Positions 10,681 through 34,011 of a DNA stretch of 40,000 nucleotides are shown here, one piece after another. Each line of letters begins with the position of its first letter. Position 1 is the stretch's first letter. This DNA is from an uncultured delta proteobacterium. Its GTDB lineage: Bacteria > Desulfobacterota > Binatia > DP-6. Made by a program: the position numbers and the translations under genes. The notes beneath the pieces are model-generated. The model had not been told where the DNA came from. It did no database searches and worked only from the letters and a program-made list of their open reading frames with translations. Location of the stretch: positions 366,948 to 406,947 of the forward strand of contig CAWFFN010000005.1 in assembly GCA_963815115.1 (NCBI GenBank). The letters run 5' to 3'.

Positions 10681-12234
10681 TCAGGTCGCGAGTGCGGGGT
10701 CCAGGGCGTGCCGGCCCGCCGCCCACGGGCTCTCGGCCGCGCCGAGCTCTGGATCCCACATGTCGAGCTTCTGCATGACGGACACGATGTGCTTGTACGT
10801 CACCAGGGCGGAGAACACGGCGTTCAGTCCCGACGGCTTTTCCTTCCACCGGCGCAGGACCCGGAGCGGGATGCGTCGGAACTCCGGTCCCATCGACCCG
10901 AACGCCCGCAGCAGGTGCGTGTAGAACTCGGCGCCGTCGTCCTCGCCGAGCCCGTACACGACCCGACCGGAGTCGGGCCACACCTCGCAGAGCCCCAGCA
11001 CACGCTGGCCGAAATGGGCCGGGTGGTACAGGCGATTGAGCAGCCAGCGCGTGCCGTGGCGTAGCTGGTCGGCGGTCATCAGCTTGGGCACGATGTTGGT
11101 CCCGGAATAGTGGTCGAAGTCGGGACGATCGACGAGCCGACCGTCCGCCCGGAGGCGCGCCTCGAGCGGAGTCCCCGCGGGCGCGTTCAGCATCCCGGTG
11201 CTGCAGATCGGCACGTTGGCGGCCTGCAGGAACTCGAACTGCTCGCGAAACGCGTCGGTGGTGTCGTGGTCGAAGCCGACGATCATCCCCGCCTGGACGC
11301 AGACGCCCCGGGCCTGCAGCTCGTGGATGCTCTCGAGCAGGTCGCGGGCGAGGTTCTGCCGCTTCTTGGCCTCCGCGAGCGCCGCCTTGTTGGGCGACTC
11401 GATGCCGACGAACGCCACGTTCAGGCCCGCCGCGGCGCACAGGTCCACGACCTCGGGATCGCGCACGATGTCGATCGAGAGCTGGGTCGAGAAGATCACC
11501 GGCTCCGCGCGGTCCCCGTTCCAGTCGCGGAGCGCGGTGAGGATCTCCGTCGCCTTCTTGCGGTTGACGGTGAAGTTGTCGTCCGAGAGGAAGATGGAGC
11601 GATACCCGTAGCCGTACAGCGTGTCCGCCTCGGCGAGGATCTGCTCGACCGCCTTGTGGCGGATGCGGCGGCCGAGATACACGATGACGTCGCAGAACTC
11701 GCACTCGAACGGGCATCCGCGGCTCGTCTGGATGACGCCGATCGTGTAGCGGTCGTTGCGCAGGAGATCCATGCGCGGCGGGGGCGAGAGGGCGAAGTCG
11801 ATCTTCTCGGGCTGGGCGTAGTGGTCGCGGTGCCGCCCGGCCCGGAAGTCGTCGAGGAACGCCGGCCAGGTGAGCTCGGCCTCGCCGGTGAAGAGGATGT
11901 CGCAGTAGGGGCGGCAGCGCTCCGGGCTCAGCGAGGCGAACGGACCGCCGATCGCGACCAGCCGCCCGCGCTCGCGGAACATCCGCGCGAGCTCGACCAT
12001 GCGCCGGCTCTGGCTGACGTAGCCGGTGATCCCGACCAGGTCGCACGGCAAGTCCAGGTCCACGGCCTCGACCGTCTCGTCACAGATCACCACCTCGACG
12101 TCCTTCGGCGTCAGCGCCGCCAGCGTCGGCGGCGCGAGGTTCGGGATGTATCCCGGCTTGCCGGTGATGTCGGCCGCTTCCGAGAGGCTCCAGAAGCTCG
12201 CCTGCAGCCCGGGATTCACGAGGTAGACGCGCAC
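10681..12234 (-). CDS. B12-binding-domain radical SAM protein (class B), divergent copy rSAM-1
   Basis: 517 aa. N-terminal Rossmann-like B12 domain (MRVYLVNPG..VGITGY), radical SAM motif SRGCPFECEFC (CxxxCxxC), and a long C-terminal helical extension. Confidence 0.9.
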   Translation of the reverse strand: MRVYLVNPGLQASFWSLSEAADITGKPGYIPNLAPPTLAALTPKDVEVVICDETVEAVDLDLPCDLVGITGYVSQSRRMVELARMFRERGRLVAIGGPFASLSPERCRPYCDILFTGEAELTWPAFLDDFRAGRHRDHYAQPEKIDFALSPPPRMDLLRNDRYTIGVIQTSRGCPFECEFCDVIVYLGRRIRHKAVEQILAEADTLYGYGYRSIFLSDDNFTVNRKKATEILTALRDWNGDRAEPVIFSTQLSIDIVRDPEVVDLCAAAGLNVAFVGIESPNKAALAEAKKRQNLARDLLESIHELQARGVCVQAGMIVGFDHDTTDAFREQFEFLQAANVPICSTGMLNAPAGTPLEARLRADGRLVDRPDFDHYSGTNIVPKLMTADQLRHGTRWLLNRLYHPAHFGQRVLGLCEVWPDSGRVVYGLGEDDGAEFYTHLLRAFGSMGPEFRRIPLRVLRRWKEKPSGLNAVFSALVTYKHIVSVMQKLDMWDPELGAAESPWAAGRHALDPALAT

Positions 12235-12246
12235 GGTGCACCTCCG

Positions 12247-12993
12247 TTACATCGCGAGTCCGCCGTCGACGTGCACGACCGCACCCGTCACGTAGCGGGC
12301 GGCGGGGGAGAGCAGAAACGCCGCCACCGGCGCGACGTCCTCGGGCTCGCCGAAGCGCCGCATGGGAATCAGCTCGGTCGCCTGGCGCTCGTACTCCGGC
12401 TTCAGTCCGGCCGTCATGTCCGTCCGGATGAACCCGAGGGCCAGGGCGTTGACGGTGATGTCGAGCCGCCCGACCTCCTTCGCCAGCGCCTTGGTGAAGC
12501 CGATGACGCCCGCCTTCGACGCCGAGTAGTTCGCCTGACCGGGCATGCCGACGATGCCACTCACCGAGGTCACGTTGAGGATGCGGCCGCTCTTGGCCTT
12601 CATCATGGGCGTGATCACGGCGCGACAGAAGTTGAACACCCCGGTCAGGTTGGTGTCGAGCACGTCCTTCCAGTCGTCGGCCTTCATCATCATGAGGAGC
12701 TTGTCCTTCGTGATGCCCGCGTTGTTCACGAGGGCGTGGATCTCCCCCAGCTCGCTGCGGGCGCGCGCGATCATCTCCCGGACGCGCTCGAGATCGGCCG
12801 AATCCACCTGGGCCGCGAGCGATCGGACGCCCAGGGCGTCGAGTTCGCTCGTCAGCGTCTCGGCGAGGTCGGCGCGGCTGCGATAGGAGAACGCCACGCT
12901 GCACCCTTGCCGGGCGAGCTCCAGGGCGATGGCGCGCCCGATGCCCCGCGTCGCTCCCGTCACGACGGCGACTCTGCCCTCGAACGTGCTCAC
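12247..12993 (-). CDS. fabG: 3-oxoacyl-ACP reductase (SDR)
   Basis: The GTG start at 12993 forms a GTGA overlap with the upstream stop. Motifs: TGATRGIGRAIA, NNAG, YSASKAG, and C-terminal VTGAVVHVDGGLAM. Confidence 0.9.
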   Translation of the reverse strand: MSTFEGRVAVVTGATRGIGRAIALELARQGCSVAFSYRSRADLAETLTSELDALGVRSLAAQVDSADLERVREMIARARSELGEIHALVNNAGITKDKLLMMMKADDWKDVLDTNLTGVFNFCRAVITPMMKAKSGRILNVTSVSGIVGMPGQANYSASKAGVIGFTKALAKEVGRLDITVNALALGFIRTDMTAGLKPEYERQATELIPMRRFGEPEDVAPVAAFLLSPAARYVTGAVVHVDGGLAM

Positions 12994-13745
12994 GAGCTGC
13001 CATTCCCCGAGCGCTCCGCGATCTGCTCGCCGACGAGCGCCGCGAAGGCTTCCGTCTCGCGGCGGAGGCCGTCGGCGCCGCCATCGGTCAGGAAGCATTC
13101 CTTGAGCGCTCTCACCGCCGCCGCGGGCTTCGCGGAGAGGTCGCGGGCCATCTCCCCGGCGGTCGCCAGCACGCGGTCTCGCGGCACGAGCCGGTCGACG
13201 AGCCCCCAGGCCAGCGCCGTCTCGGCCCGGATCATCCGTCCGAGGTACAGCATCTCCTTGGCCCGTCCGACGCCGATGAAGCGGGCGAGGCGCTGGGTCG
13301 CCCCGAGGCCCGGAATGATGCCGTGCTTCAGCTCGGGCATGCTGAAGTACGCCACCTCCGAGGCGACCCGGAGGTCGCACACCAGCGCGAGCTCGAGGCC
13401 CCCGCCGATGGCGACGCCGTTGATGGCGGCGATCAGCGGCTTCGGATAGGCCTCGATGCGCGAGTAGATGCGCTGGAACCTTTCGAACAGCGTCATGCGC
13501 TCCTCGTGTCCGAGGCCCGCCATCTCCTCGCCGAAGAGCTGCTGCAGATCGCCGCCGGTGCAGAACGCGTTGCGGATCCCGCCGGTGAGGATGACCGCAG
13601 CGACGGCAGGGTCGTCCTTCCAGGCCTCCAGCGCCGTGACGATCTCGTCCAGCACCTGGCCGTTGATGGCATTGATCGGCGGTCGCATCAGGGTGACGGT
13701 GCCCACCCCGTCCTCGTGCGCGACCGACAGGTGATGAAATCCCAT
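12990..13745 (-). CDS. Enoyl-CoA hydratase/isomerase (crotonase) family protein, ECH-1
   Basis: ATG 13745 (MGFHHLSVAHEDGVGTVTLMRPP). Motifs FCTGGDL and AAINGVAIGGGLELALVCD. The upstream part of ORF 12990..13964 is junk. Confidence 0.9.
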   Translation of the reverse strand: MGFHHLSVAHEDGVGTVTLMRPPINAINGQVLDEIVTALEAWKDDPAVAAVILTGGIRNAFCTGGDLQQLFGEEMAGLGHEERMTLFERFQRIYSRIEAYPKPLIAAINGVAIGGGLELALVCDLRVASEVAYFSMPELKHGIIPGLGATQRLARFIGVGRAKEMLYLGRMIRAETALAWGLVDRLVPRDRVLATAGEMARDLSAKPAAAVRALKECFLTDGGADGLRRETEAFAALVGEQIAERSGNGSS

Positions 13746-13747
13746 GC

Positions 13748-14968
13748 CTATTCGCTCCCCACGACGAGACACGCCGAGCTGGCCTGCGGATCGAGCGATG
13801 GCACCAGGACGGTGCGCACCGCCCGGGCGAGCGGGCCGGACACGAGGGCCAGCGGCCCGATCTCCGGATCGACCTCCGTCGTGTTGATCGTCGGCGGGAT
13901 CGTGCCCGACTCGAGCGCGACGAGCGCGGCAGCGGTCTGCAGCGCGCCCGACGCCCCCATGCATTCGCCCAGCATCGACTTGACCGCCGTCACCGGGACA
14001 TCGGGTCCGAGGAGCCGTCCGATCGCCGCCCCCTCGACGAAGTCGGCCTCGCGGCTCGAGCTGGCGGATGCGCTGACCAGGTCGACGGACCGGGGCGCAA
14101 CGCCGGCACGCTCGAGCGCCAGGCTCATCACGGCTTTCACGGAGTCCGCCGCGCGCCGTCCGCCGGTGAAGAGCGACCCGTAGCCAGCCACGGTTCCCCG
14201 GATGCGCGCGCCTCGTTTGCGGGCCACGTCCCGGTTCTCGAGGACGAAGAGATAGCAGCCCTCACCGAGGACGAACCCTCTCCGCCGCCGGTCGTAGGGC
14301 ACGCTGAGCCCTGCCGCCTCGCCTCGCGCGAGCCGACCCTCGTCGGCTGCGAGCAGGAAGGCATCGAGGGAGAGCTGCTCCATGCCGCCGGCGACCACGC
14401 GGGTCGCCTGTCCCGAGCGGATCATGCCCGCCGCGGTGCCGAGCGCGTCGGCGCTGGACGCGAATCCCGAGGACACCGTGTTGATGCAGGCCTGGAGCCT
14501 GGACCGCACGGCGGCGAAGTTGGTCGCGGAATTGAGCGCCGCGTCGAACCCCTCCATGGGAAGCAGGTCGGCTGGATCATGAGTCAGTATCTTCTGCGTG
14601 TAGTCGGTGGTCTGAGGAAAGTTGCCGTGCGCGGTCCCGACGATGAGCCCGGTCTCGGCCCGCGTCTCCTCGCCGTCCTCCAGCCCGGCGTCCTGGAGCG
14701 CCTGCTGCACCGCGACGGCCAGAAGCCGCGTCCCGCGCATGACGTACTTGATGCCCTTGCCGCCCAGCCGCTCGTCCGCACGCAGGTCGCGCACCTCGGC
14801 GCCCACCCGTACCGGCGACGCCGAGAGGTCGAGCGTCGTCACGGGACCGATCGCCGAGGCGCCACGGCGAAGATTCGCCGAGAACTCCTCCCAGGCGCAA
14901 CCCAGCGGCGAGACGACGCCCACGCCCGTGATGACGACGTGCAGGGATGTCCTCGCCTCGGCGCTCAT
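13748..14968 (-). CDS. Ketosynthase-like protein lacking the catalytic Cys (CLF/KS-beta-like), partner of KS-1
   Basis: The ATG at 14968 forms an ATGA overlap with the KS-1 stop. It has a thiolase fold (VVITGVGVVSPLG...), but SSGFASSADAL aligns to ACSSGNHAL of KS-1 (Cys to Phe), and both catalytic His motifs are absent. Confidence 0.85.
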   Translation of the reverse strand: MSAEARTSLHVVITGVGVVSPLGCAWEEFSANLRRGASAIGPVTTLDLSASPVRVGAEVRDLRADERLGGKGIKYVMRGTRLLAVAVQQALQDAGLEDGEETRAETGLIVGTAHGNFPQTTDYTQKILTHDPADLLPMEGFDAALNSATNFAAVRSRLQACINTVSSGFASSADALGTAAGMIRSGQATRVVAGGMEQLSLDAFLLAADEGRLARGEAAGLSVPYDRRRRGFVLGEGCYLFVLENRDVARKRGARIRGTVAGYGSLFTGGRRAADSVKAVMSLALERAGVAPRSVDLVSASASSSREADFVEGAAIGRLLGPDVPVTAVKSMLGECMGASGALQTAAALVALESGTIPPTINTTEVDPEIGPLALVSGPLARAVRTVLVPSLDPQASSACLVVGSE

Positions 14969-16143
14969 GCCTTCGTGAAGACGACGACGGCGTTGTTGCC
15001 GCCGAAGGCGAACGAGTTGTTCATCACCGCACGGAGCGCGAGCGGGCGTGCGGCGTTCGGGACGCAGTCGACGGGGCAGTCCGGGTCGGGGGTCTGGTAG
15101 TTGATGGTGGGAGGGACGACTCCGTCCCGCAGCGCCAGGCAGCACACCACGGACTCGATGGCGCTGGCCGCTCCCATGGAATGGCCGATCATCGACTTGA
15201 CCGAGCTCACCGGGAGGCGGCCGGCCCGGTCGCCGAACACGGCGCGCAGCGCCACGGCTTCGGCCCGGTCGTTCGCCGGTGTCCCGGTGCCGTGCGCGCT
15301 CACGTAGTCGATGTCGTCGGGCGCCAGCCCGGCGGCGCGGAGCGCGGCGCGCATCGCCCGGATGGCCCCTGCGCCCGACGGATCGGGCGACGTCACGTGG
15401 AAGCCGTCCGCGCTCAGCCCGTACCCCTTCACCTCGGCGTAGGCCGGCGCTCCCCGCTCGGCGGCGTGCTCGCGCGACTCGAGCACGAGCATCCCCGCGC
15501 CCTCGCCGATCATCAGACCGCGGCGGTTCCGGTCGAACGGCTGGCAGTGCTCGGCGGCCAGAGAACGGAGGTTGTGGAAGTACGTGAACTCCGTCTGCGC
15601 GAAGACGTCGACCCCGCCGACGACCATCGCGTCCACCTCGCCTCGCCGGATGAGATCACACCCGGAGGCGAGGGCATGATTCCCGGAGGAGCACGCGTTC
15701 ACGGACAGGAGATGGGGTCCGCCGGTGCCGAGCCGGTCCGCCAGCGCGCCCAGGATGGTGGAGAGGGGATAGGTGCGGGTGACCGCCGGCGTGAAGCCGT
15801 TCGCCTTGGTTGCCGGGTCGGCGCGCAGCGCCGCCTCGAAGGTCTTCAGATCGCCCCCGAGCGTGCCGACGACCACCCCCACACGCTCCGCGCCCGTGCG
15901 GCCCACGTCGAGCCCGGCGTCCCGGACCGCCTCGCTCGCGGCCGTGCCCGCCAGCTCGTGCGGGGTGGTCTCGAGCGCGAGCTCGCGGATGACGTGGCCC
16001 CGGTGCACCTTGTAGGCCGTCGTGTCGAAGTAGGGGATCTCGCCGGCGCCTTCCCGACCGGCGAGCATCGCCTTCCACGCCGCATCGGTACCGACTCCGA
16101 CGGAGGTGACGAGGCCGACGCCGGTGACGACGACTCCTGACAT
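14965..16143 (-). CDS. Beta-ketoacyl-ACP synthase (FabF-like), KS-1
   Basis: 392 aa. Motifs: VVVTGVGLVTSVG, active-site VNACSSG, SAHGTGTPAND, SVKSMIGHSMGAAS, and FAFGGNNAVVVF. Confidence 0.9.
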   Translation of the reverse strand: MSGVVVTGVGLVTSVGVGTDAAWKAMLAGREGAGEIPYFDTTAYKVHRGHVIRELALETTPHELAGTAASEAVRDAGLDVGRTGAERVGVVVGTLGGDLKTFEAALRADPATKANGFTPAVTRTYPLSTILGALADRLGTGGPHLLSVNACSSGNHALASGCDLIRRGEVDAMVVGGVDVFAQTEFTYFHNLRSLAAEHCQPFDRNRRGLMIGEGAGMLVLESREHAAERGAPAYAEVKGYGLSADGFHVTSPDPSGAGAIRAMRAALRAAGLAPDDIDYVSAHGTGTPANDRAEAVALRAVFGDRAGRLPVSSVKSMIGHSMGAASAIESVVCCLALRDGVVPPTINYQTPDPDCPVDCVPNAARPLALRAVMNNSFAFGGNNAVVVFTKA

Positions 16144-16388
16144 CTAGGAGACCGACCCAAGACGGCGTCTCGGGTCGGATCCGGAGGCGAGCGCAGCGCG
16201 CTCGGTAGCACGCACGACCTGCATGTCGCGGCCGGCAACGCCGGCGCGACACTCTCGGCACGCCCGTGTCCGCCTCGTTTGCCGCGCCAGCTTTGCTGGC
16301 CGCGGCATGGCGGTCGCCCATGCCACCATACGTCTCATGTCCACTTTTCCTCTCCGACCCAAGACGCAGTCCTGGGTCGGCCTTCTAG
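16144..16388. repeat. Non-coding spacer bounded by 35-bp inverted repeats (MITE-like), each arm a hairpin
   Basis: 16144-16178 (CTAGGAGACCGACCCAAGACGGCGTCTCGGGTCGG) matches the reverse complement of 16354-16388 at 30 of 35 positions. Both ends terminate in CTAG. No credible ORF lies inside. Confidence 0.4.
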
Positions 16389-17827
16389 GCGGTGGCGTGC
16401 TCCTGCCGGTAGCGCCACAGCGCGCGGTCGTACTCGCCGGAGTCCCGCAGGTCCTTCGCGTTCTGGATGAGGTGCCGGAAGACCAGCTGCCAGTCGAGGT
16501 TCACGCGAAACGCGAAGTACGCCGCCGCCAGGTTGCCCAGCACCTCGCGAGCGCGGGCGAACCGCCGGCGCAGGACCTCCGTGGTGTAGAGGCGCTCGTA
16601 GAGGTGCTCGAGCCCCGCGATGAAGTCGTCCAGCGGCATGCTCTTCAGCAGGTAGAGGAGGTGATGCGCGGTGCCGTACTGCCAGTCCTGCGGGAAGCGG
16701 TTGCGGAACAGCCGCCCCTCGGCCTGCAGGCGCTCGTAGAAGCGCGTTCCCGGGGCCGGGGTCTCGATCCCGCAGGTCATGATGTCGATGTCGTTGTCGA
16801 GGACGAAGTCGGCGACGCGATCGAACACCTCGGGGCTCTCCGTGTCGGTCCCGAAGATCATCGTGCCCCAGACCGCCAGGCCGTGGTGGTGGATGCGCTC
16901 GATGGCGCGTCGATAGTCGCCCCCCGTGGCCTTCAGGTTGAACTTCTTGTTGAGGAGCTGGAGGGTCGCGGCCTCGAGCGACTCGAATCCGATCAGCATC
17001 CCCACGCTGCCGGACTGCGCCATCCAGTGCAGGACCTCGTCGTCCTCGGCGATGTGGATGGACGTGAAGCCGAACCAGTTCTGGCGGATGCCGCGTTCCG
17101 CCATCTGGCGGTACAGCGACACGGTGCGCTCGTGCGACAGCTTGCCGTGGCCGTAGAAGTTCTCGTCGCTCCAGATCATGCCACGATACTGCCCCTTGAA
17201 CTCCTCGAGCTCGTCGAGCAGGTCGTCGACGGGGCGTTCGCGATATTTCCGGCCCTGGAAGAGCGGGATGAAGCAGAACTCGCAGGTGTACGGGCACCCC
17301 GCCGACGCGATCGCCGCCGTGAAACGGTAGCCGTACTTGCGCCGCAGGAACTCCCGGTCGGGTCGGATGTCCCGGAGGATGGACAGATCGTGCAGCCCGC
17401 CGTCGTAGTGCGGCTGGAGCTCCCCGCGCTCGAAGTCCCGCACCAGCCTGGGCCACGCGGTGAACGCCTCTCGCGTGCAGATCGCATCCGCGAAGGGCCG
17501 CGCCTCCTCCGGGTAGGAGGTGGCGTGCCAGCCGCCGATGGCCACCGGGATCCCCTGCGCCCGGCACGCCGTGGCGATCTGGTAGGCGCGCGGCGCCTGG
17601 TGGCTCATCGCGGTGATCCCCACCAGATCCGCGCCGTCGAACGTGATGCCGGTCCCGTCCGCGGCGAGGGCCTGCTCCTTCATCTCGTCGATGATGTCGA
17701 CCTCCCAGCCCGCGGGCGTGAGCGCCTTCAGGTAGGCGAGGCCGAGCGGCATCTGCGTCAGGACCGAGACGTTCTCCTCGCCGACGTTGCCCGGCGGATG
17801 CGGGCTGATGAGCACCAGGCGCTTCAT
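16385..17827 (-). CDS. B12-binding-domain radical SAM protein, tandem paralogue rSAM-2
   Basis: ATG 17827 (MKRLVLISPHPPGNVGEENVSVLTQMPLGLAY) overlaps the upstream stop by 1 nt (TGATG). Motifs GCPYTCEFC, ENFYGHG and NWFGFTS. The track ORF 16385..19246 is an off-frame extension. Confidence 0.9.
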   Translation of the reverse strand: MKRLVLISPHPPGNVGEENVSVLTQMPLGLAYLKALTPAGWEVDIIDEMKEQALAADGTGITFDGADLVGITAMSHQAPRAYQIATACRAQGIPVAIGGWHATSYPEEARPFADAICTREAFTAWPRLVRDFERGELQPHYDGGLHDLSILRDIRPDREFLRRKYGYRFTAAIASAGCPYTCEFCFIPLFQGRKYRERPVDDLLDELEEFKGQYRGMIWSDENFYGHGKLSHERTVSLYRQMAERGIRQNWFGFTSIHIAEDDEVLHWMAQSGSVGMLIGFESLEAATLQLLNKKFNLKATGGDYRRAIERIHHHGLAVWGTMIFGTDTESPEVFDRVADFVLDNDIDIMTCGIETPAPGTRFYERLQAEGRLFRNRFPQDWQYGTAHHLLYLLKSMPLDDFIAGLEHLYERLYTTEVLRRRFARAREVLGNLAAAYFAFRVNLDWQLVFRHLIQNAKDLRDSGEYDRALWRYRQEHATA

Positions 17828-19368: not shown

Positions 19369-19379
19369 CGCGTCTCCCT

Positions 19380-20828: not shown

Positions 20829-20842
20829 GCGACACTCCCTCC

Positions 20843-25729: not shown

Positions 25730-26365
25730 CTAAGAACGTGCCCCCGTCCGCCGGCGCTGCGGGCGGCGATCGGTCGTGTCGATCGCGGACGGGGCGACAC
25801 CCGACAGGAAGATGGCCGCACCACGGTGCAGGCGCTCGGTGAGCGGCTGACCGCCGTCGCCGTGCAGCCATCGCAAGATGATGGCGTAGTAGGTCCCGAT
25901 GAAGATGTCCGCCAGCTCGTGCGGATCGTATTCGGTGCTGACCTCGCCCCGGCGCTGCCCCTCGTGCAAGAGCGCCGCGCTCAGGTCGGAAAGGATGCGT
26001 TCGGCACGCACGTTGCCGAAGTTCAGAGCGCTCCGGGTGAACAGCGTGCGGTAGAACCGCTTGTCGGCCTGCAGCCCCCGCCCCATCGCCTCGAGCAGGC
26101 GCCTCACCTTCTCCGCCGTGGGGGCGTCCCGCCGCGCCTCGTGCTCGAGCATCTCCTGGTATCGCCCCACGGTGTCCTCGGCAGCCTGCTGCAGGATGGC
26201 GTCCTTGCTCGGGAAATAGTTGAAGAACGTCGCCTGGCTGATCTCCAGCTGTCCGATGATGTCGTCGATCGTCACCTCGTCGAACCCACGCTCCATGAAG
26301 AGCTGGATCGCGTTGGCGAGGATCTTACCGCGCAGCTTGTTCTTCTTCTCGGCCCGTAAGCCCAT
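25730..26365 (-). CDS. TetR/AcrR-family transcriptional regulator
   Basis: 211 aa. The N-terminal HTH is KILANAIQLFMERGFDEVTIDDIIGQLEISQATFFNYFPSKDAIL. Confidence 0.9.
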   Translation of the reverse strand: MGLRAEKKNKLRGKILANAIQLFMERGFDEVTIDDIIGQLEISQATFFNYFPSKDAILQQAAEDTVGRYQEMLEHEARRDAPTAEKVRRLLEAMGRGLQADKRFYRTLFTRSALNFGNVRAERILSDLSAALLHEGQRRGEVSTEYDPHELADIFIGTYYAIILRWLHGDGGQPLTERLHRGAAIFLSGVAPSAIDTTDRRPQRRRTGARS

Positions 26366-27662: not shown

Positions 27663-28397
27663 TCATTCGAGAAGATCGACGAGCTTCTTCTTCACGAGCG
27701 GGCGCGAGACCAGCGAGGCGAACAGCTTCGCCTCACGCTCCGCGTCCACCTCGTTCACCAGCTCCAGGGCGGCGAGGGCCGCAGCCGGCTCCGCGCGCGC
27801 GATCGCGCCTGCCAGCCTGCGCGTCTCCTCGGCCACCTGATCCGGTGCGACGCACCGGTTGACGAGCCCGATGCGATGAGCCTCCGGCGCGCTGACCGTC
27901 TGCCCGCTCAGGATCATCTCGAGCGCCTTCGCGCGTCCGACGAGCCGCGCCAGGCGGCCGATGCCGCCCAGAGCCGGCACGAAGCCGAGCGACAGCTCGG
28001 GAAACCCGAAGCGCGCCCGGCTTCCGCACACGCGCAGGTGGCAGGCGAGCGCGATCTCGAGTCCCCCGCCGAGGCAGAGCCCGTTGACGGCCGCGATGAA
28101 CGGCTTCGGGAGGCCGAAGAACTCGTCGAGCAGCGCGCGGCCGGCCCGGGCCTGTCGCTCCGCCTCGTCGGCGGACGGAAAGCGTGCGATCGCACTCAGG
28201 TCGCCGCCGACGGAGAACACCCGGGGCAGGCCGGTGACGATGACGACGCGCACGGTGCTCGCGGCGACGATCGGCCGCGCCTCCTCGAGCTGCGCGAAGA
28301 GCGCCGGGGTCAGCGCATTCACGGGCGGGTTGTCGAGCCGCACGACGGCCGTGCTGCCCTCGACCACCGTCTCGACCAGCCTCCGCGGATCAGCCAT
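27663..28397 (-). CDS. Enoyl-CoA hydratase/isomerase (crotonase) family protein, ECH-2
   Basis: 244 aa. Motifs FSVGGDL and AAVNGLCLGGGLEIALACHLRV. It overlaps the upstream gene by 8 nt. Confidence 0.9.
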   Translation of the reverse strand: MADPRRLVETVVEGSTAVVRLDNPPVNALTPALFAQLEEARPIVAASTVRVVIVTGLPRVFSVGGDLSAIARFPSADEAERQARAGRALLDEFFGLPKPFIAAVNGLCLGGGLEIALACHLRVCGSRARFGFPELSLGFVPALGGIGRLARLVGRAKALEMILSGQTVSAPEAHRIGLVNRCVAPDQVAEETRRLAGAIARAEPAAALAALELVNEVDAEREAKLFASLVSRPLVKKKLVDLLE

Positions 28398-29559
28398 CGT
28401 CCCTGCGCACGCGCTCCAGCAGGGAGCGCGTGGGTTGGTAGCGACCGCCGAGGCTCGCCTCCAGCGCGGCCAACCTGGGCTCCAGGAGCGTCGGGTCGAG
28501 CTCCCGGATCTTCTCGAGCGGGCCCTCGTCCGTTCCGACGACCTCGCGCAGGATGGCGTCGATCTCGTCGCGCTCGCCCAGACCCTGGGTGAGACAGCAG
28601 AGATACTCGTCGATGAGTCGCAGCCAGATCCGCCCGGGGATGTCCTCTCCCGGCTCGGGCCGCGGCGCGACGTCCGATTCCGCGAGCAGGGCGAGCAGAC
28701 GCGGGTTCGCTCCCCGACCCCGGTCTCCGTACAGGAAGATCCCGCTCTTGCTCTTCCGTCCCAGGTGGCCCTCGGCGCGCAGCGTGCTCAGGATGCGGCG
28801 GACGCCGCCGTCGTCGGCGGCCAGCGAGGATCCCTCCCCGGTGAAGACGTCGAGGGCGACGTCGATGCCGACGAGATCGAGTGTCGACAGCGGGCCCAGC
28901 GACATCCCCGCGTCCGTCATCTGCGCGTCGACGGCGGCAGGGGCGGCGCCTCCCGCGCACACGGCCAGGCCCTCCGCGATGTAGCCCGCGAGGAGGCGAT
29001 TCACGACCGAGCGCCGGACCACGAAGGGGCGCTTGCCGAGCGAGCGACACCAGGCCGCGATGTCCGCCACCGCCGACGGCGCCGTCCGCGAAGCGGGAAT
29101 GATCTCGACCACCGTGGTCAGCCTGACGGGCGCGAGGAAGTGCGTGCCGACGAAACGCGCCGCGGCGGGAAGACCGTCGCCGAGCACCTCCAACGAGAGC
29201 TCGGACGTGGTCGAGGTCAGGATGGTGCGCTCGGGACAGGCGCGCGACAGCTCCGAGAGGACCCGGCGCTTGGCGGTCGGATCCTCCGCGACCGCTTCCA
29301 CGGCGATGTCGACGTCCCGAAAGTCGGAAAGGTCCTGCGTGACGCGTACCCGATCGAGGAGCTCCGCCACCGTCGAGGCCGCCAGCCGGCCGTGGTCGCG
29401 TCGCCGCTCCAGCCGCCGGCGGACCCCGGCCCGGAAGGCCGCGCCCGATTCGGGCCGCCGCGCGAACAGCGTGAGCGGCATGCCCCGGTCGGCCAGCAGA
29501 TCCGCGAGACCGCCGCCGATCTGTCCGAGGCCGACGATCCCCACCCGCTGCCTAGTCAA
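28390..29559 (-). CDS. 3-hydroxyacyl-CoA dehydrogenase family protein (extended C-terminus)
   Basis: N-terminal Rossmann VGIVGLGQIGGG, then FVGTHFLAPVRLTTVVEIIP and GPLSTLDLVGIDV. The TTG start at 29559 overlaps the ACP-2 stop by 8 nt; an alternative GTG lies 5 codons in. Confidence 0.85.
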   Translation of the reverse strand: MTRQRVGIVGLGQIGGGLADLLADRGMPLTLFARRPESGAAFRAGVRRRLERRRDHGRLAASTVAELLDRVRVTQDLSDFRDVDIAVEAVAEDPTAKRRVLSELSRACPERTILTSTTSELSLEVLGDGLPAAARFVGTHFLAPVRLTTVVEIIPASRTAPSAVADIAAWCRSLGKRPFVVRRSVVNRLLAGYIAEGLAVCAGGAAPAAVDAQMTDAGMSLGPLSTLDLVGIDVALDVFTGEGSSLAADDGGVRRILSTLRAEGHLGRKSKSGIFLYGDRGRGANPRLLALLAESDVAPRPEPGEDIPGRIWLRLIDEYLCCLTQGLGERDEIDAILREVVGTDEGPLEKIRELDPTLLEPRLAALEASLGGRYQPTRSLLERVRRDDG

Positions 29560-29878
29560 TCTCGACCTCGCCCCGGAGGATCCGCGTGATCAGGTCGATC
29601 AGCTCTCCCAGCGTCTCCACCGGGTTGCGGCGCCCGAAGCGCGCCAGCTTCCGGGTGTCGACCGTGATCTCGTACTGTCCCTGGAGCTCCTCGAACAGGG
29701 CGAGGAAGAGCAGCGAATCGAGCCCGAGATCGTCGAACAGGTGCGCCTCGTCGCGCATCTCGGCGATGTCGCGTTCCAGCTCGTCGGCGAGGAAGCGCTT
29801 CACCTGCGCGCTCACCTGCGCACGCTCCGCGGAGCGCGCGGGGCCGCCGACGTACGTCGAGCTGCTCTCGTCCGACAT
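29552..29878 (-). CDS. Acyl carrier protein, ACP-2
   Basis: ATG 29878 is preceded by AGGAGG. The product is 108 aa with the motif DDLGLDSLLFLALF. Confidence 0.85.
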   Translation of the reverse strand: MSDESSSTYVGGPARSAERAQVSAQVKRFLADELERDIAEMRDEAHLFDDLGLDSLLFLALFEELQGQYEITVDTRKLARFGRRNPVETLGELIDLITRILRGEVEID

Positions 29879-29894: not shown

Positions 29895-31118
29895 CTACTG
29901 GAGCGACTCGCTCCTCCTGACGACGAGGCTCGCGGCGCGGTCGCAGTCGAAGCTGTTGACGACCGCGGTCCGGACCGCATGGGGCACGCTGCGACCGCGC
30001 ACGTGCGCCGGCACGATGCAGTCCGGGTCCTCGTCCTCGCAGTTCACGGTCGGCGGAACGCGGTCGTGCTGGGCGGCGAGCAGACAGGCGACGACCTGGA
30101 GCATGCCGGAGGCGGCGCCGGCATCGCCGAGCATCGACTTGATGGCGCTGGTGCGAAGTCGGCGCGGCTCGGCGGCGAACAGCCGCCGGAGCGCCATGGC
30201 TTCACCGCGATCGCCGGACGGGGACGAGCCGGCGCCGGCCGCGACCCAGTCGACCTCGTCGGCACCGGTGCCGGCCGCCGCCAGAGCCCGCTGCATTGCC
30301 TCGGCGATGGCCTCTGCCGTCGCGAGGACCTCCTCGCCCGTCTCGACGGGCACGCTGCCGTACCCCGCGACCTCGCCGTACACCCGGGCACCGCGGCCCC
30401 GCGCGGCCTCGGCGCTCTCGAGGACGAGGACTCCGCAGCCCTCGGCGAGGATGAGCCCGCGCCGCCGCCGGTCGAACGGACGCGGCGCCATGGTGTCTCC
30501 GAGCACGCCCGTGCGCCAGAACCCCTCGACGAGGGGCGGAGACAGCACCTCGAGGCCGCCGACCAGGAGGGCGCGGGCGCGCCCGCAGCGCAGCGCGGTG
30601 AGTCCGTGCTGGAGCGCGTCCAGCGACGAGGTGGCGCCGTTGGTCACGGTCGTGTTGAGACCCCGGATGCCGAAGCGAATCGCCAGATTGCCGCCGGCGA
30701 TGTTGATGAACAGGTTGGGAAAGCGCAGCGCATTCGTGCGCTCGCCCGGCGAGAGCAGGCTCTCGTAGAAGCCGACGCAGTCCCCGACGTTGCTGAAGCT
30801 CGATGCGACCACCACCCCGATGTCCTCGGCCGCGTCGGGAGAGATCTCCAGGCGTGCGTCCCGCCGCGCGAGCTCGGCCGTGCACAGGAGGAGCCGGGTC
30901 GCGTCGTTCAGGTACTTGAGCCCTTTCGACCCGATGATGTCCTCGGGCCGGAACTCGCCGAGCTGCCCCGCGTAGCGATAGGCCTCGGGCAGCGCCTCGA
31001 GCCCTGCGATCGGCCTCACGGCGAGCCGACCTTCGGCCAGACCGTCCCAGAAGGCGTCGCGACCGACGCCGAGCGGACTGATCACTCCGATGCCCGAGAT
31101 CACGACGCGGTCACCCAT
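29895..31118 (-). CDS. Ketosynthase-like protein lacking the catalytic Cys (CLF-like), third copy
   Basis: 407 aa. N-terminus is VVISGIGVISPLG. TNGATSSLDAL aligns to the KS active site (Cys to Ala), and the His motifs are absent (AAGAGSSPSGD). Confidence 0.85.
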   Translation of the reverse strand: MGDRVVISGIGVISPLGVGRDAFWDGLAEGRLAVRPIAGLEALPEAYRYAGQLGEFRPEDIIGSKGLKYLNDATRLLLCTAELARRDARLEISPDAAEDIGVVVASSFSNVGDCVGFYESLLSPGERTNALRFPNLFINIAGGNLAIRFGIRGLNTTVTNGATSSLDALQHGLTALRCGRARALLVGGLEVLSPPLVEGFWRTGVLGDTMAPRPFDRRRRGLILAEGCGVLVLESAEAARGRGARVYGEVAGYGSVPVETGEEVLATAEAIAEAMQRALAAAGTGADEVDWVAAGAGSSPSGDRGEAMALRRLFAAEPRRLRTSAIKSMLGDAGAASGMLQVVACLLAAQHDRVPPTVNCEDEDPDCIVPAHVRGRSVPHAVRTAVVNSFDCDRAASLVVRRSESLQ

Positions 31119-31121
31119 GGA

Positions 31122-32489
31122 TCAGTACCGCTCCCGCTCGTCCACGAGGCGGCGCAGCTTGCGCTCCTGGAGCAGCGCCCCGCGCGGCACCGCGGTGAAC
31201 CGGAGGTCGAAGAGCCCGAGCTGGTAGTCCTTCCACGTGGTCTCGAACTTCGCGCGCAGCACGTCCTTGAACCGCTGGGCGACCTCTGCCACGTCGCCGC
31301 CGTCGAGCTCGAGCCGCAGCTCGCACACGTCCTGGTGCCCGTCGCGCCGGATGGCCACCTGCCAGGTTCCCGACGCCTGCGGGACGTCGTTCAGGATGGC
31401 CTCGAACAGCGCGGGGTGTACCCCTTCGCCTCCCAGCATGACGATCTCGTCGCTTCGGCCCCGCAGCGGTGACAGCCGCCGCGTGACGATCCCGCAGTCG
31501 CACGGCTCGGAGACGAGCCTGGCGACGTCGCCCACGCGGTAGCGGATGAGCGGCATGGTGGTGCGATCGAGCGTGGTGAAGACCACTTCGCCATTGCCGT
31601 CCGCGTCCGGGTCGACGATCTCGAAGAGGAAGCTGAACTCGTTCAGGTGGTATCCGGACCGGAACCGGCACTCCATCCCACCGGCTCCTTCCGTGCACCC
31701 GTAGCACATGAACATGCGGGCGCCCCAGACTTCTTCGATGAACTGCCGCGAGCGTTGCGGCAGGCCCTCGCTGGCGCCGACGATCAGCCGCAGCGGCGAG
31801 GCCCCCTGCTCACGCGCCAGCTGGGTGAGGCGGAGGATCCACGACACGTCGCCGATCAGCACGTCGTAGCGATGCTCGGCCAGACGCCGGTAGACCTCGG
31901 CAGGGGGAATCTTGCCGGGAAAGGCGCCGAAGGCACCGAGCTTGGTGACGGCGCGGGCGAACCAGGGACCGCCGTTCCAGTAGTGGTAGTCCGAGGTGCT
32001 GATCACACGGTCGCTCGGGCGAATCCCGACGTGATAGAGGCCAACGGCCATGAGGCTGGTCGCCGCCTCCACCTCTTCGTGCGAGTAGTATATCGTCTTC
32101 CTGCGCTGGGCCGTGCCGCTGGTCTCGTAGAGCACCTGGGGAGGTCGGCAGAGGAAGTCTTCCGCCGGATGGTCGAGGAGATCCTGCGGCGTCGTGAACA
32201 GGTCGCCCAGCTCGGCCGGATGCGACACGGTCGCCGGGTCGACGCCGTGGCGCTGGAAGAGCCGCCGGTAGAACGGCGAGTGGCGGGCGGCGTGGAGCAG
32301 CGTCCGCCGGAGCTTCCAGGCCTGGATGCTGTGCAACGTCGCCGGCGAGCTGGCGCGTGCGGCGAGGCGGTAGGCGGCCTCGACGGACCGTCCGTTGACC
32401 AGGCTCGCCACCGTGCTGGCCACCCCGCCGACGATCCAGTGTCGCCACATGGGCTCTCCACGCCGCGCCGGCGCGGGCTGGGCGGTCAT
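31122..32489 (-). CDS. Phenylacetate-CoA-ligase-family (PaaK/CapK/F390-synthetase-like) adenylate-forming enzyme
   Basis: Family blocks: FYRRLFQRHGVDP, YETSGTAQRRKTIYYS, MCYGCTEGAG, PLIRYRVGDVARL, and GRSDEIVMLGGEGVHP. The ATG at 32489 forms an ATGA overlap with the upstream ORF; an alternative ATG is at 32450. Confidence 0.85.
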   Translation of the reverse strand: MTAQPAPARRGEPMWRHWIVGGVASTVASLVNGRSVEAAYRLAARASSPATLHSIQAWKLRRTLLHAARHSPFYRRLFQRHGVDPATVSHPAELGDLFTTPQDLLDHPAEDFLCRPPQVLYETSGTAQRRKTIYYSHEEVEAATSLMAVGLYHVGIRPSDRVISTSDYHYWNGGPWFARAVTKLGAFGAFPGKIPPAEVYRRLAEHRYDVLIGDVSWILRLTQLAREQGASPLRLIVGASEGLPQRSRQFIEEVWGARMFMCYGCTEGAGGMECRFRSGYHLNEFSFLFEIVDPDADGNGEVVFTTLDRTTMPLIRYRVGDVARLVSEPCDCGIVTRRLSPLRGRSDEIVMLGGEGVHPALFEAILNDVPQASGTWQVAIRRDGHQDVCELRLELDGGDVAEVAQRFKDVLRAKFETTWKDYQLGLFDLRFTAVPRGALLQERKLRRLVDERERY

Positions 32490-32836
32490 CGGGGCGACCC
32501 CCGCTCCCAGTAGTTGACGGTTGCCGTGGCGAGCGCGAGGGCGTCGCCGAGCGCGCACCGCTCCGAGCGCAGGACCGCGACCCACTCGGGCCGGAAGGTC
32601 CGATCACCCGGCCCGAACCGCTCCCAGACCGCGGTCATGCGCTCGGCCGTCGCGTCCGACTCGGCCTCGACGAGGTCGTCCCGCTCGGCCACGAGCTGGA
32701 GCCCGCGGATCGCCTCGTCGATCTGCAGCAGCTCGGCCTGCGCGAGCGCGCCGGCGCGCATCGCGGCCAGGCAGATCAGCGCAAAGAGCACGAGGTCGTG
32801 CTCGCCCTGCGCGGCGGCCTGATCGCGATTCGGCAT
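32486..32836 (-). CDS. Hypothetical protein (116 aa)
   Basis: This is the last 116 codons of track ORF 32486..34366, starting at ATG 32836 (MPNRDQAAAQGEHDLVLFALICLAAMRAG...). It has good GC3 bias and is translationally coupled on its 3' side. I recognise no family. Confidence 0.6.
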   Translation of the reverse strand: MPNRDQAAAQGEHDLVLFALICLAAMRAGALAQAELLQIDEAIRGLQLVAERDDLVEAESDATAERMTAVWERFGPGDRTFRPEWVAVLRSERCALGDALALATATVNYWERGSPR

Positions 32837-32841
32837 GTCGC

Positions 32842-34011
32842 TCAGGTGCGGCTGCGCTCGGTCGCCTCGATCCAGCGTTCGAGCATGCTGCGCTGCCGGA
32901 ACAGATCGTGCTCCGGGCGTGCATCGACGCCGTTCACGATCGGATGCTTGAAGAAGAGCGACAGCTGCTCCTGCGGCCCGGCGGCCCCGGCGCGCGCGGC
33001 CCGGTCGAGCAGGCGCGCCGCATCGATCGCGAGCGGGGCGGCCAGCACCGAGTCCCCGCCCAGGAGATTCACCTTGAGCTGCATCGGGACACCGCAGAAC
33101 CCGATGAAATCGATGTTGTCCCACGATTCCTTGAAGTCGCCGCGCGGGCCATAGTACCGGATGTCGACGATGTGGTTCTCGACCGGGTAGCCGAGGATGG
33201 CGTCCAGGACGCCGAGCTTGTTGTGGAGCTTCTCCACGGCGCGCTGCGGATGCGAGAGATTCTCGCCATCGGCGTTCCCGAGGTAGTTGGCGCTGATCCA
33301 GCCACGGACCTGGAGCCCGCGCAGCGCGAACATGGGTGCGAGCACGGTCTTCAGCAGCGTCTGACCGGTCTTGCCGTCCTTGCCGCAGAAGGGCGTGCGC
33401 TCGCGTCGCGCCAGCGCACGCAAGGCCGGCAGCTCGGCGCTCACGTTCGAAGTGAAGTTCAGGTACGGAATCCTGTTCGAGAGCGCCAGCCACGCATACA
33501 CCATCGACGGTGTGATCGCGGGGTCGTCGGTGAGGAGCGCCCGCTCGAATGCGTCGAGGTCGTCGTGGACGTCGGATGCGACGGGCGTCTCCACCGCGGG
33601 CAGGACGTCGACCAGGACCAGGTCGTGGCCGCCGGCGCGGAGGGTTCGCAGGTGCTCGCGAGCGCTGCGCAACGCGTCGGCGCGGCGTCCGGCGATTGCG
33701 GGCAGCGGGCGCGTCTGCTCCAGCTCGGCCGCCACGGTCCGGACGAGCTCCGGAGGCACGACGCCCTTCTCGCGCACCGACTCCACCAGCGGCCGCGTGT
33801 CGAGGTCCCAGCCCATGACGTGGATGGAGGAGAGCGGCGCGAGCCCGAGTCGGGTAGCGGGCGACGTGGCGGGCCCCGAGCCGGGCGGCCAGGGAAGCTC
33901 GGTCAAGAGTCCGGCGGGGTCGGCGTGACGCTGGAGCCCCGCGAGCCCCGCGGCGATGGTGGTCCCGATGCACCCCGAGATTCCCGCTACGGCGAGCGTC
34001 AGCCCCTTCAT
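32842..34011 (-). CDS. Myo-inositol-1-phosphate synthase (MIPS) family protein
   Basis: ATG 34011 (MKGLTLAVAGISGCIGTTIAAG). GKDGKTGQTLLKTVLAPMF and WISANYLGNADGENLSHP match the conserved MIPS blocks (GQTKxKSVLAxFL; SYNHLGNNDGxNLSxP). Confidence 0.85.
   Translation of the reverse strand: MKGLTLAVAGISGCIGTTIAAGLAGLQRHADPAGLLTELPWPPGSGPATSPATRLGLAPLSSIHVMGWDLDTRPLVESVREKGVVPPELVRTVAAELEQTRPLPAIAGRRADALRSAREHLRTLRAGGHDLVLVDVLPAVETPVASDVHDDLDAFERALLTDDPAITPSMVYAWLALSNRIPYLNFTSNVSAELPALRALARRERTPFCGKDGKTGQTLLKTVLAPMFALRGLQVRGWISANYLGNADGENLSHPQRAVEKLHNKLGVLDAILGYPVENHIVDIRYYGPRGDFKESWDNIDFIGFCGVPMQLKVNLLGGDSVLAAPLAIDAARLLDRAARAGAAGPQEQLSLFFKHPIVNGVDARPEHDLFRQRSMLERWIEATERSRT

Follow-up and report, generated by a model that had tools for sequence, protein, structure and literature searches.

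Are the genes to which ladderane synthesis has been ascribed confined to anammox bacteria, and what would they make elsewhere? This question is raised by a 40,000-nucleotide stretch of contig CAWFFN010000005.1 (assembly GCA_963815115.1, positions 366,948 to 406,947 of the forward strand) from an uncultured delta proteobacterium, the whole of which is hereafter called the window. In it, 22 consecutive minus-strand genes (g1 to g22 in transcription order, from 34011 down to 10681; Table 1) encode, among others, ketosynthases (KS), their Cys-less partners of the chain-length-factor type (CLF), acyl carrier proteins (ACP) and four cobalamin (B12)-type radical S-adenosylmethionine enzymes (rSAMs). 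The synthesis of ladderanes, the strained membrane lipids of anammox bacteria, has been an open problem since their discovery, with no anammox bacterium genetically tractable and no in vitro synthesis achieved, and in the literature the anammox gene set known as Cluster I is tied to these lipids solely because it is highly expressed and was taken to be exclusive to their producers. Cluster I was stated to occur exclusively in ladderane producers, or to be unique to them (PMC10139942; 2026 preprint), and no paper reporting it outside these organisms was found in the literature searched. As judged from sequence, the window and its relatives contradict that exclusivity.

Counterparts of two anammox loci in one gene cluster

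Cluster I of Kuenenia stuttgartiensis (KustE3603-3608; 2026 preprint; PMC4790861) corresponds to positions 5187-11461 of locus L002, which encode an ACP of 86 aa, a FabZ of 149 aa, two KS proteins of 406 and 412 aa, a phytoene-dehydrogenase-like protein of 489 aa and a B12-rSAM of 486 aa. Genes g10 to g15 of the window follow the same order with near-identical lengths, and their products are 51, 51, 58, 47, 44 and 62% identical to the Kuenenia proteins (KustE3603 in the case of g10 and the protein at the kuste3607 position in the case of g14). Such an order, collinear with g10-g15, was also present in about 50 anammox loci. Comparison with solved structures pointed in the same direction: g10 matched amxACP (7auf) with 94 bits against 33 bits for canonical ACPs, g11 matched amxFabZ (8ayi and 7qv0) with 165 bits against 118 for canonical FabZ, g12 matched amxFabF2 (9s5h_B) with 544 bits against 348 for the next FabF, and g13 matched amxFabFmut (9s5h_C) with 359 bits against 216 for the next match. 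The rSAM encoded by g15 is nearer to the Cluster I enzyme of Kuenenia than to its own neighbours g16 (53%) and g17 (47%).

The likeness extended to individual residues. amxFabZ is distinguished by Ile69, where canonical FabZ has Gly, by a non-basic residue at position 96, and by Val or Ile at position 115 (PMC10139942). When aligned to 8ayi, g11 carries Leu69, Leu96 and Ile115 and satisfies these hallmarks, the changes at 69 and 96 being conservative and not identical (Cluster I FabZ has Ile69 and Ser or Thr at 96). Similarly, g13 keeps Phe135 and Val139, described in the literature as the amxFabFmut tunnel residues that tune chain length, and its MEFPNTVLN aligns with MDFPNTVLN. The active site of g13, read like those of the other KS and CLF proteins from an alignment to E. 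coli FabF, is Glu/Gly/Lys/Glu, whereas in the Cluster I CLF the Cys is replaced by Val or Thr. Both clusters share the substitutions in the tunnel and ACP patch of FabZ, the CLF tunnel residues and the logic of an inactive partner, although Cluster I resides in an anammox planctomycete and the window core in a 70% G+C soil bacterium, within a 22-gene operon that holds three further rSAMs. The product of g14 had been called a CrtI-like oxidase in a first-pass annotation; this name is unsafe, since g14 scored 169.7 bits with the CrtI-family model TIGR02734 (cut-off 238.1) and its Kuenenia homologue kuste3607 showed no CrtI activity in vivo and formed no lycopene (PMC4790861). On the evidence of order, length and residue-level homology, g10-g15 are gene-for-gene counterparts of anammox Cluster I.

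A second anammox locus (L084), from a Brocadiaceae metagenome-assembled genome (MAG) of 40% G+C, was found via matches of g16 that were closest to g17. Its genes encode, in order, AcpS, a B12-rSAM, two KS proteins and, further on, a FadH-like reductase, a crotonase (ECH), a short-chain dehydrogenase/reductase (SDR) and a muconolactone-isomerase-like protein (MIase); the layout AcpS, rSAM, FabF and non-canonical KS is that described for kuste2802-2805 in the literature. The products of g17, g18, g19, g20 and g21 were 58, 51, 40, 44 and 57% identical to proteins of L084 (positions 10001-14244 cover the match to g17-g19), and both loci share the order rSAM, KS, Cys-less KS, crotonase and FabG at 40-58%. 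The Cys-less partners g19 (Phe/Ser/Lys/Glu) and Kuste2805 (Phe/Asn/Lys/Glu; table in Rattray 2009) both carry Phe in place of Cys and keep the Lys and the Glu. The orthogroup of g17, which includes proteins of Scalindua rubra and Brocadiaceae, was supported by 48/50 bootstraps in a neighbour-joining tree of rSAMs, and g21 was 49-61% identical to its counterparts in other related loci. Differences were also evident: in this comparison, which is to a Brocadiaceae MAG and not to Kuenenia itself, the window lacks the AcpS, FadH-like reductase and MIase of L084, and no AcpS (PF01648) protein was found among the window open reading frames (ORFs) scanned. By homology and order, the five genes g17-g21 have as their counterparts in this second locus those for the rSAM, KS, non-canonical KS, crotonase and FabG. 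The two loci are separate in anammox genomes, whereas the window directly fuses their apparent counterparts, with g16 in between. The first-pass annotation had likened the gene mix to that proposed for ladderane synthesis in anammox bacteria; this resemblance is real, but it was understated, being one of collinear orthology to both Cluster I and a Kuste2802-2805-type locus.

In L084, positions 16810-21095 encode the FadH-like protein (674 aa, Oxidored_FMN/Pyr_redox) and the MIase. A MIase gene also lies between the genes for CLFc and ECH in locus L004 (15322-15675), and none is present in the window.

For g16, 1:1 orthologues were found in L004 and in the Myxococcales locus L008 (66-67%), and the best named homologues were B12-rSAMs of Kuenenia, Brocadia, Scalindua and other Brocadiales. 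An assignment of g16 to an anammox orthogroup was rejected, as its support was 15/50 and the Brocadiales homologues stand alone, outside a lipid context. Such g16-like genes (56-59%) occur in Brocadiales and Planctomycetota MAGs (L085 3080-6243, L069, L073, L075, L078, L079 and L083), where tblastn revealed no homologues of the window cluster around them. In L085, the only one of these loci with genes listed, the g16-like gene adjoins genes for a 316-aa protein of no family and a TetR regulator. Two of the MAGs with a lone g16-like gene have Cluster I elsewhere (L037 with L073, and L046 with L083). Separately, a 139-kb ENA contig (P0030) encodes a predicted protein of 862 aa in which a ketoacyl-synthase domain is fused to a g16-like B12-rSAM (72% to g16). 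This may be a natural fusion, or the result of a stop codon that was missed; a genuine fusion would be Rosetta-stone evidence that the rSAM works with a KS/CLF pair.

The four rSAMs of the window (g15-g17 and g22) have B12-binding and radical SAM domains, the PF02310 match of g22 (31.5 bits) being just below the gathering cut-off of 32.1. The cysteines of the CxxxCxxC motif (C179, C183 and C186) were invariant in an alignment of g15-g17 and their homologues, which did not include g22. This last enzyme is only 29-32% identical to g15-g17; two copies of it (62-65%) flank the cluster of locus L071, and its family was found, at about 50% identity, in Binatia, Chloroflexota and Pirellulales. The NCBIfam model TIGR04072 (rSAM_ladder_B12, 'lipid biosynthesis B12-binding/radical SAM protein') has a cut-off of 360 bits, which was reached by none of the window rSAMs (g15, 63.6; g17, 51.5; g22, 57.1 bits). 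Their sub-threshold NCBIfam matches were to the methylases PhpK, methyl-coenzyme M reductase (MCR) glutamine methylase and HpnR, and equally to the non-methylating HpnJ and BchE, while the nearest solved structures (AprD4, TsrM, TokK and CysS) gave 50 bits or less. For the function of the rSAM, phytoene-dehydrogenase-like and crotonase proteins, solved structures yielded only distant or generic matches.

Distribution of the core and its phylogeny

GTDB species representatives were scanned with an rSAM alignment, and the window proteins were mapped onto the loci of the best 80 of 196 matches. The six-gene core (g10-g15) was present, in the same order, in every anammox genus recovered. It was also complete outside anammox bacteria in a Blastocatellia MAG (L023), an Acidobacteriota MAG (L076), two high-G+C Planctomycetota MAGs (L059 and L077) and a 'Spirochaetales' MAG of 69% G+C (L071). 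The nearest genomes were the Danish soil MAGs MFD04944 and MFD03975, also named 'uncultured delta proteobacterium' (L005 and L006), in which g4-g22 are kept at 72-97%; a third relative, on a 577-kb contig (L086), keeps g1-g14 and the adjoining transport module at 75-99%. The Myxococcales locus L008 and the locus L004 have the core without the CrtI-like gene, together with three rSAMs, KSc, CLFc, ECH and FabG, and a third KS/CLF pair and a second ACP follow the core there as well. Partial versions, with rSAM tandems, KSc, CLFc and SDR, were seen in L004, L008, L071, L072, L077 and L087. Homologues are common in soil metagenomes, where clusters of proteins at 90% identity had 49-98 members. The first-pass annotation had regarded the cluster as an orphan, which is wrong, as the family spans several phyla; the comparison of synteny that it had proposed placed collinear homologous clusters in MAGs and in anammox loci. 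This gene arrangement, conserved in three independent MAG contigs and partly across phyla, is not due to chance.

A neighbour-joining tree was built from the six concatenated core proteins (55 taxa, 1958 columns). All anammox copies formed one clan (100/100) from which the window was excluded. The Blastocatellia copy was sister to this clan (100/100), followed by the window with L005, and then by the other four. Because the window copy branches outside the anammox clan, it is not a recent transfer from anammox bacteria; the tree is distance-based and midpoint-rooted and does not settle the direction of transfer. The pattern fits the acquisition of kuste2805, 3603 and 3605-3606 at the origin of anammox that was inferred by Liao et al. 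(PMC9387917).

Gene organisation and outer modules

The window is about 70% G+C throughout, and raw ORF lists were noisy for this reason. Genes were called by an analysis of reading frames based on G+C content at third codon positions (GC3), followed by Pfam scans of the window ORFs. This procedure reproduced all 22 genes and the coordinates of the first-pass annotation, its junctions exactly, and every one of its domain assignments in transcription order; the Pfam search that it had suggested returned the listed domains. Six junctions are 4-nt overlaps (12990-93, 14965-68, 23546-49, 24781-84, 25245-48 and 32486-89), one is a 1-nt overlap (17827) and two are 8-nt overlaps (28390-97 and 29552-59), which is consistent with translational coupling. 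Only two real gaps interrupt the run (Table 1).

Table 1. Position and assignment of the cluster genes, the two internal gaps and the divergent transport module of the window
Feature	Coordinates (strand)	Length	Assignment	Basis
g1	32842..34011 (-)	389 aa	myo-inositol-1-phosphate synthase (MIPS) homologue	PF07994 1e-35, PF01658 1e-28
g2	32486..32836 (-)	116 aa	no family	no Pfam or NCBIfam match
g3	31122..32489 (-)	455 aa	PaaK-like AMP-dependent ligase	PF00501, PF14535
g4	29895..31118 (-)	407 aa	CLFa, Cys-less KS partner	PF00109/PF02801
g5	29552..29878 (-)	108 aa	ACPa	PF00550; DSL motif in translation
g6	28390..29559 (-)	389 aa	3-hydroxyacyl-CoA dehydrogenase family (3HCDH)	PF02737 3e-43, PF00725
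g7	27663..28397 (-)	244 aa	crotonase ECHa	PF00378 5e-47
g8	26408..27652 (-)	414 aa	KSa, active-type ketosynthase	PF00109/PF02801; Cys-His-Lys-His intact
g9	25730..26365 (-)	211 aa	TetR-family regulator	PF00440
Gap	25521..25729	209 nt	intergenic, 3' of TetR and 5' of Cluster I-like block	possible internal promoter
g10	25245..25520 (-)	91 aa	ACPb, amxACP homologue	best PDB amxACP 7auf
g11	24781..25248 (-)	155 aa	FabZ of amxFabZ type	best PDB 8ayi / 7qv0
g12	23546..24784 (-)	412 aa	KSb, amxFabF2 homologue	best PDB 9s5h_B; catalytic residues intact
g13	22323..23549 (-)	408 aa	CLFb, amxFabFmut homologue	best PDB 9s5h_C
g14	20843..22318 (-)	491 aa	CrtI/CrtISO-like flavoprotein (phytoene-dehydrogenase-like)	PF01593
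g15	19380..20828 (-)	482 aa	rSAM1, cobalamin-type radical SAM, Cluster I counterpart	PF02310, PF04055
g16	17827..19368 (-)	513 aa	rSAM2	PF02310, PF04055
g17	16385..17827 (-)	480 aa	rSAM3, Kuste2803-type counterpart	58% to L084 rSAM
Gap	16144-16384	241 nt	intergenic, between g17 and g18	holds 245-nt element 16144-16388
g18	14965..16143 (-)	392 aa	KSc, active-type ketosynthase	PF00109/PF02801; catalytic residues intact
g19	13748..14968 (-)	406 aa	CLFc, Cys-less partner	active site Phe/Ser/Lys/Glu
g20	12990..13745 (-)	251 aa	crotonase ECHb	PF00378 1e-59; 54% to L004, L008
g21	12247..12993 (-)	248 aa	FabG-type 3-oxoacyl-ACP reductase	TIGR01830 312.1 > 297.75
g22	10681..12234 (-)	517 aa	rSAM4, divergent cobalamin-type radical SAM + DUF4070	PF04055, PF13282, PF02310
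ABC ATPase	34224-35006 (+), C-terminal piece in other frame to 35166		divergent ABC ATPase	PF00005
MlaC	35175-35777 (+)		MlaC	PF05494
ABC-2 permease	35774-36865 (+)		ABC-2 permease	PF12698

A 245-nt element occupies the gap between g17 and g18; its termini are inverted repeats of 36 nt (arms 16144-16179 and 16353-16388, 86% complementary), each arm being itself a GC-rich hairpin (CCGACCCAAGAC...GTCTYGGGTCGG). In L005, a close relative, the corresponding gap measures only about 84 nt, on account of which the element resembles a small insertion of the MITE/REP-like kind inside the operon. Searches of 10300-10800, 25480-25760 and 33990-34250 revealed neither sigma-70-like promoters nor terminators or palindromic operators, and Rfam detected no riboswitch or other RNA family in the window.

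Three KS/CLF-type pairs can be recognised, since g8, g12 and g18 retain Cys-His-Lys-His and g4 (Ala/Gly/Lys/Asp), g13 and g19 lack the Cys and both His residues. Both ACPs (g5 and g10) carry the DSL motif. These pairs, with FabG and FabZ, bear out the architecture of KS/CLF, ACP, ketoreductase (KR) and dehydratase (DH) suggested at first pass, without an enoyl reductase (ER), no family of which was detected in the cluster proteins by Pfam and NCBIfam scans. In agreement with the first-pass annotation, the window ORFs scanned contained no FabD, thioesterase domain, type I polyketide synthase (PKS) or nonribosomal peptide synthetase, and no glycosyltransferase.

Upstream of the core, g1 is by its domains (123.9 and 100.2 bits against Pfam cut-offs of 25 and 27) and its nearest structure a true member of the MIPS family, of predicted enzyme activity. 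Its best PDB match was MIPS 7nwr with 211 bits, compared with 154 bits for the A. fulgidus MIPS and 40 bits for the Ari2-like 6k96, and it aligns with the MIPS motifs, namely the catalytic Lys-rich KDGKTGQTLLKT and LGNxDG. No NCBIfam equivalog matched g1, whose subfamily is rare: one representative reaches 65% identity and the next only 47%. MIPS genes inside the related clusters L071 and L087 (the latter a Myxococcota contig) match g1 at 64%. In both loci MIPS and ligase adjoin each other and close the core cluster, following FabG and a metallo-beta-lactamase (MBL)-fold protein; g3 is 66-68% identical to these ligases. In NCBIfam, g3 was nearest to the DVU_1553-family ligase (198 bits, cut-off 300) and then to FlxY (133 bits), both below threshold. 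The recurrence of MIPS and ligase with the core in these differently arranged loci is the main evidence that the two belong to the pathway, and it makes plausible the link to inositol that had been proposed in the first-pass annotation. Of the remaining genes in this half, g2 is conserved only in the close relative L086 (75%) and is missing from L071 and L087, g8 shares 49% identity with the third L004 KS, and the position of g9 is conserved in L005 and L086.

In L071 (15795-16679 and 19247-21384) and L087 (7844-8743 and 11326-12084), the MBL-fold gene precedes MIPS, and an oxygenase gene of the Asp/Asn beta-hydroxylase-like type (2-oxoglutarate oxygenase) lies 3' of the ligase. The presence of this oxygenase suggests that the hosts are not strict anaerobes. 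A DegT-type aminotransferase also adjoins the L071 cluster.

The divergent MlaC/ABC module noted at first pass was recovered by Pfam and is conserved at 91%, in the same divergent position, in L086; its role in export is predicted. Its ATPase is split between an ABC_tran frame (34224-35006) and a DrrA-C-terminal-like piece of 83 aa in another frame (34918-35166). The same split recurs in L086 (7328-8270; 245 aa and 84 aa) and may be a shared assembly error, if these are long-read MAGs, or real.

Two neighbours were considered as members and rejected. A 627-aa protein (8427-10310, minus strand), 370 nt downstream of g22, has an N-terminal alpha/beta-hydrolase fold followed by about 350 unassigned residues; as a conserved release enzyme it was discarded, since L005 has no such gene after g22 and the hydrolase beside the L071 cluster matches it at only 30% (over 115 aa). 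Unrelated alpha/beta hydrolases adjoin the clusters in L071, L023 and L087. A release or thioesterase role of the 627-aa protein is possible, with no support from orthology. The GDSL-like hydrolase and MBOAT acyltransferase (36886-39282, minus strand), flanked in the window by the permease and an amidohydrolase gene, are both missing at that place in L086, where the amidohydrolase (97% identical) directly follows the permease, so that this pair represents an indel difference between close relatives. At the other side of the window, the 2.6 kb or so between an SbmA/ABC_membrane_2 gene and a weak Cu2_monoox_C gene (4523-7133) hold high-GC3 ORFs (e.g., 5285-6124, plus strand) without Pfam match.

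Proposed pathway, competing readings and significance

We consider it probable, at roughly 0.72, that the 22 genes form one dedicated, ACP-dependent pathway of the type II fatty acid synthase (FAS)/PKS-like kind for an rSAM-modified specialised lipid, with a centre homologous to both anammox loci. No characterised cluster with this set of type II PKS, cobalamin rSAM and phytoene desaturase genes was found in the literature searched, in line with the first-pass view. In the proposed scheme, the PaaK-like ligase would prime module a (KSa/CLFa and ACPa, 3HCDH serving as its ketoreductase and ECHa as its dehydratase), which would be the source of a primer or of a second chain. Module b (KSb/CLFb, ACPb, FabG and FabZ) would then yield short unsaturated ACP thioesters of about C6-C8, a length proposed because it matches the preference measured for the anammox homologues: in the literature, amxFabZ prefers chains up to about C6-C8, amxFabFhet favours C6-C8 substrates, and the KSb/CLFb homologues decarboxylate malonyl-amxACP. 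The CrtI-like flavoprotein might shift, add or remove double bonds, after which rSAM1-3 may add SAM-derived carbon or forge C-C bonds on the short intermediates. Module c (KSc/CLFc, FabG and ECHb) would elongate the modified chain, with tailoring by rSAM4, while MIPS could provide inositol phosphate for a head group or ester, and the divergent ABC/MlaC system would carry the lipid to the outer membrane.

The order in which modification precedes extension is suggested by the gene order KSb/CLFb, flavoprotein, rSAM1-3, KSc/CLFc, ECH and FabG. A modify-while-elongating logic, with short carrier-bound unsaturated intermediates altered between elongations by a radical SAM or KS/CLF-like enzyme, has its analogy in jawsamycin (Jaw5) and cispentacin (AmcE/F/G) synthesis, and ring formation during chain growth, by analogy with Jaw5, is one of the three ladderane routes discussed in the literature. 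Jaw5 is a HemN-like enzyme that does not depend on cobalamin and acts together with an iterative type I PKS. No homology to the window rSAMs is implied; window proteins resembled AmcF (255 bits, cut-off 325) and AmcE (105 bits, cut-off 140) below threshold. Most characterised cobalamin-dependent rSAMs are methylases, for which reason unsaturated chains with methyl branches or small rings are expected by default and are a more likely product than true ladderanes. The polyene-derived chain of the first-pass annotation, methylated, cyclised or cross-linked, is conjectural.

Several points weigh against this single-pathway reading. Enzymes of the 3HCDH and crotonase families usually take CoA and not ACP thioesters, and methylation and cyclisation by the rSAMs cannot be told apart from sequence. 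No phosphopantetheinyl transferase, FabD or release enzyme was found inside the cluster among the ORFs scanned. The TetR gene and the 209-nt gap divide the cluster, which would perhaps give two transcripts, and the CrtI-like gene is dispensable in some versions, being missing from L004 and L008. There were no anammox-named proteins in the best 120 homologues of g3 or g22, and g1 had no close named homologues, so that the parallel with anammox does not extend to the outer modules. Finally, in the literature, no experiment ties Cluster I-type genes to any product, in anammox bacteria or elsewhere.

The alternative that survives best, though we hold it to be the less likely course, is that the Cluster I family is not ladderane-specific even in anammox bacteria and that its B12-rSAMs are C-methyltransferases of short acyl-ACPs, leading to mid-chain methyl-branched (poly)unsaturated fatty acids. 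Both 10-methylhexadecanoic and 9,14-dimethylpentadecanoic acids occur among anammox lipids, and their omega-7 methyl group would equal C2 of a C8 intermediate, matching the C6-C8 preference of amxFabZ and amxFabFhet. The occurrence of the six-gene core in at least four non-anammox lineages, the prevalence of methylation among characterised enzymes and the sub-threshold likeness to B12-rSAM methylases would also fit, but this likeness is equally to HpnJ and BchE. The CrtI-like enzyme, the three KS/CLF pairs and the three to four rSAM paralogues are left unexplained, Cluster I ranks, according to the literature, among the anammox candidate clusters with the highest expression, and a literature search on 10-methylhexadecanoic acid turned up no paper that ties these genes to methyl-branched acids.

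An outer-membrane pigment of the aryl-polyene or flexirubin kind, in which the ligase would load an aromatic starter, KS/CLF, KR and DH would build the polyene and the rSAMs would decorate it, is unlikely. Highly reducing type II PKS and aryl-polyene systems (ishigamide Iga11/12, ApeO/ApeC, flexirubin Flx) resemble the window in their KS/CLF heterodimers, dedicated ACP, FabG-type KR, hot-dog DH, AMP-ligase for the starter and absence of an ER; moreover, g3 resembles FlxY and g21 resembles FlxB, weak ApeI/ApeP-like Pfam matches were seen on the FabZ homologues, and a lipid-export module adjoins. These systems are, however, much less similar to the window than the anammox proteins are, with KS, CLF, ACP and FabZ all nearest to the latter (326 bits for 6kxd against 544 for amxFabF2), and they lack the rSAMs, the CrtI-like enzyme and the MIPS that the window has. 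All flexirubin models stayed below threshold (FlxY, 133.6 against 520; FlxB, 264.4 against 340), and Pfam scans revealed no starter-forming lyase, LolA/LolB-like gene, or glycosyl- or acyltransferase of the kind typical for aryl-polyene clusters.

That the cluster makes genuine ladderane lipids, with concatenated cyclobutanes, is a slim possibility, under which ladderanes would not be anammox-only and a complete pathway would lie in one operon. All the 'exotic' genes of Cluster I and those of Kuste2803-2805 type have collinear counterparts in the window, the residue-level hallmarks of amxFabZ and amxFabFmut are shared, and the inferred acquisition of the anammox genes at the anammox origin (PMC9387917) fits non-anammox copies outside the anammox clan. 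Ladderanes have, however, been reported only from anammox bacteria in the literature, identities between the window and anammox proteins are just 44-62%, two further rSAMs, the third KS/CLF module and MIPS have no anammox counterpart identified, and some relatives lack the CrtI-like gene. Clusters of the Desulfotalea/Geobacter type bear on this point as well. They were noted as 'ladderane-like' FAS clusters by Rattray 2009, with products uncharacterised, and have, like the window, FAS paralogues beside radical SAM, phytoene-dehydrogenase-like and phenylacetyl-CoA-ligase-like genes; Desulfotalea, with looser homologues, makes no ladderanes according to the literature. The Desulfotalea synteny given by Rattray covers SAM enzymes, phytoene-dehydrogenase-like genes, phenylacetyl-CoA ligase and a membrane protein, and lists Kuste2803 among the genes without it, whereas the window matches both Cluster I and the Kuste2803-type block. 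'Ladderane' biosynthetic gene cluster calls (antiSMASH) have also been reported, loosely defined, in non-anammox genomes.

Two or more unrelated abutting operons (g1-g9 and g10-g22), as the TetR gene with the 209-nt gap, the limitation of anammox homology to g10-g21 and the occurrence of the core without module a in other lineages might suggest, are improbable, given that the complete gene order is kept in L005, L006 and L086, that MIPS and ligase go with the core in L071 and L087 despite the different arrangement of these loci, and that the third KS/CLF pair and second ACP follow the core in L004 and L008.

The consequences reach beyond the window. Since a soil bacterium of 70% G+C and members of several other phyla carry an orthologous Cluster I, the argument from exclusivity falls. 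The physical joining of Cluster I to the Kuste2803-2805-type block, crotonase and FabG predicts that the separate anammox loci share one pathway, and the comparison defines a minimal conserved set (ACP, FabZ, KS/CLF, rSAM1, rSAM3, KS/CLF, ECH and FabG). A single non-anammox operon of 23-26 kb, open to synthesis and expression, would offer a new comparative and experimental handle on the ladderane pathway. A far-reaching possibility, which we regard as a long shot, is that uncultured soil Myxococcota, some Acidobacteriota and non-anammox Planctomycetota make ladderane-type or other strained polycyclic fatty acids, and that anammox bacteria received scattered copies of the genes from such a lineage. 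If this were true, the operon would be the first complete, self-contained version, comprising Cluster I, the Kuste2803-2805 block, extra rSAMs, a priming module, a head-group gene and an exporter. Should ladderane-like lipids be made by these bacteria, the pathway would be in hand and ladderanes would lose their status as anammox-only biomarkers; should they not, the genes would not be ladderane-specific and the main candidate cluster of the field would need rethinking.

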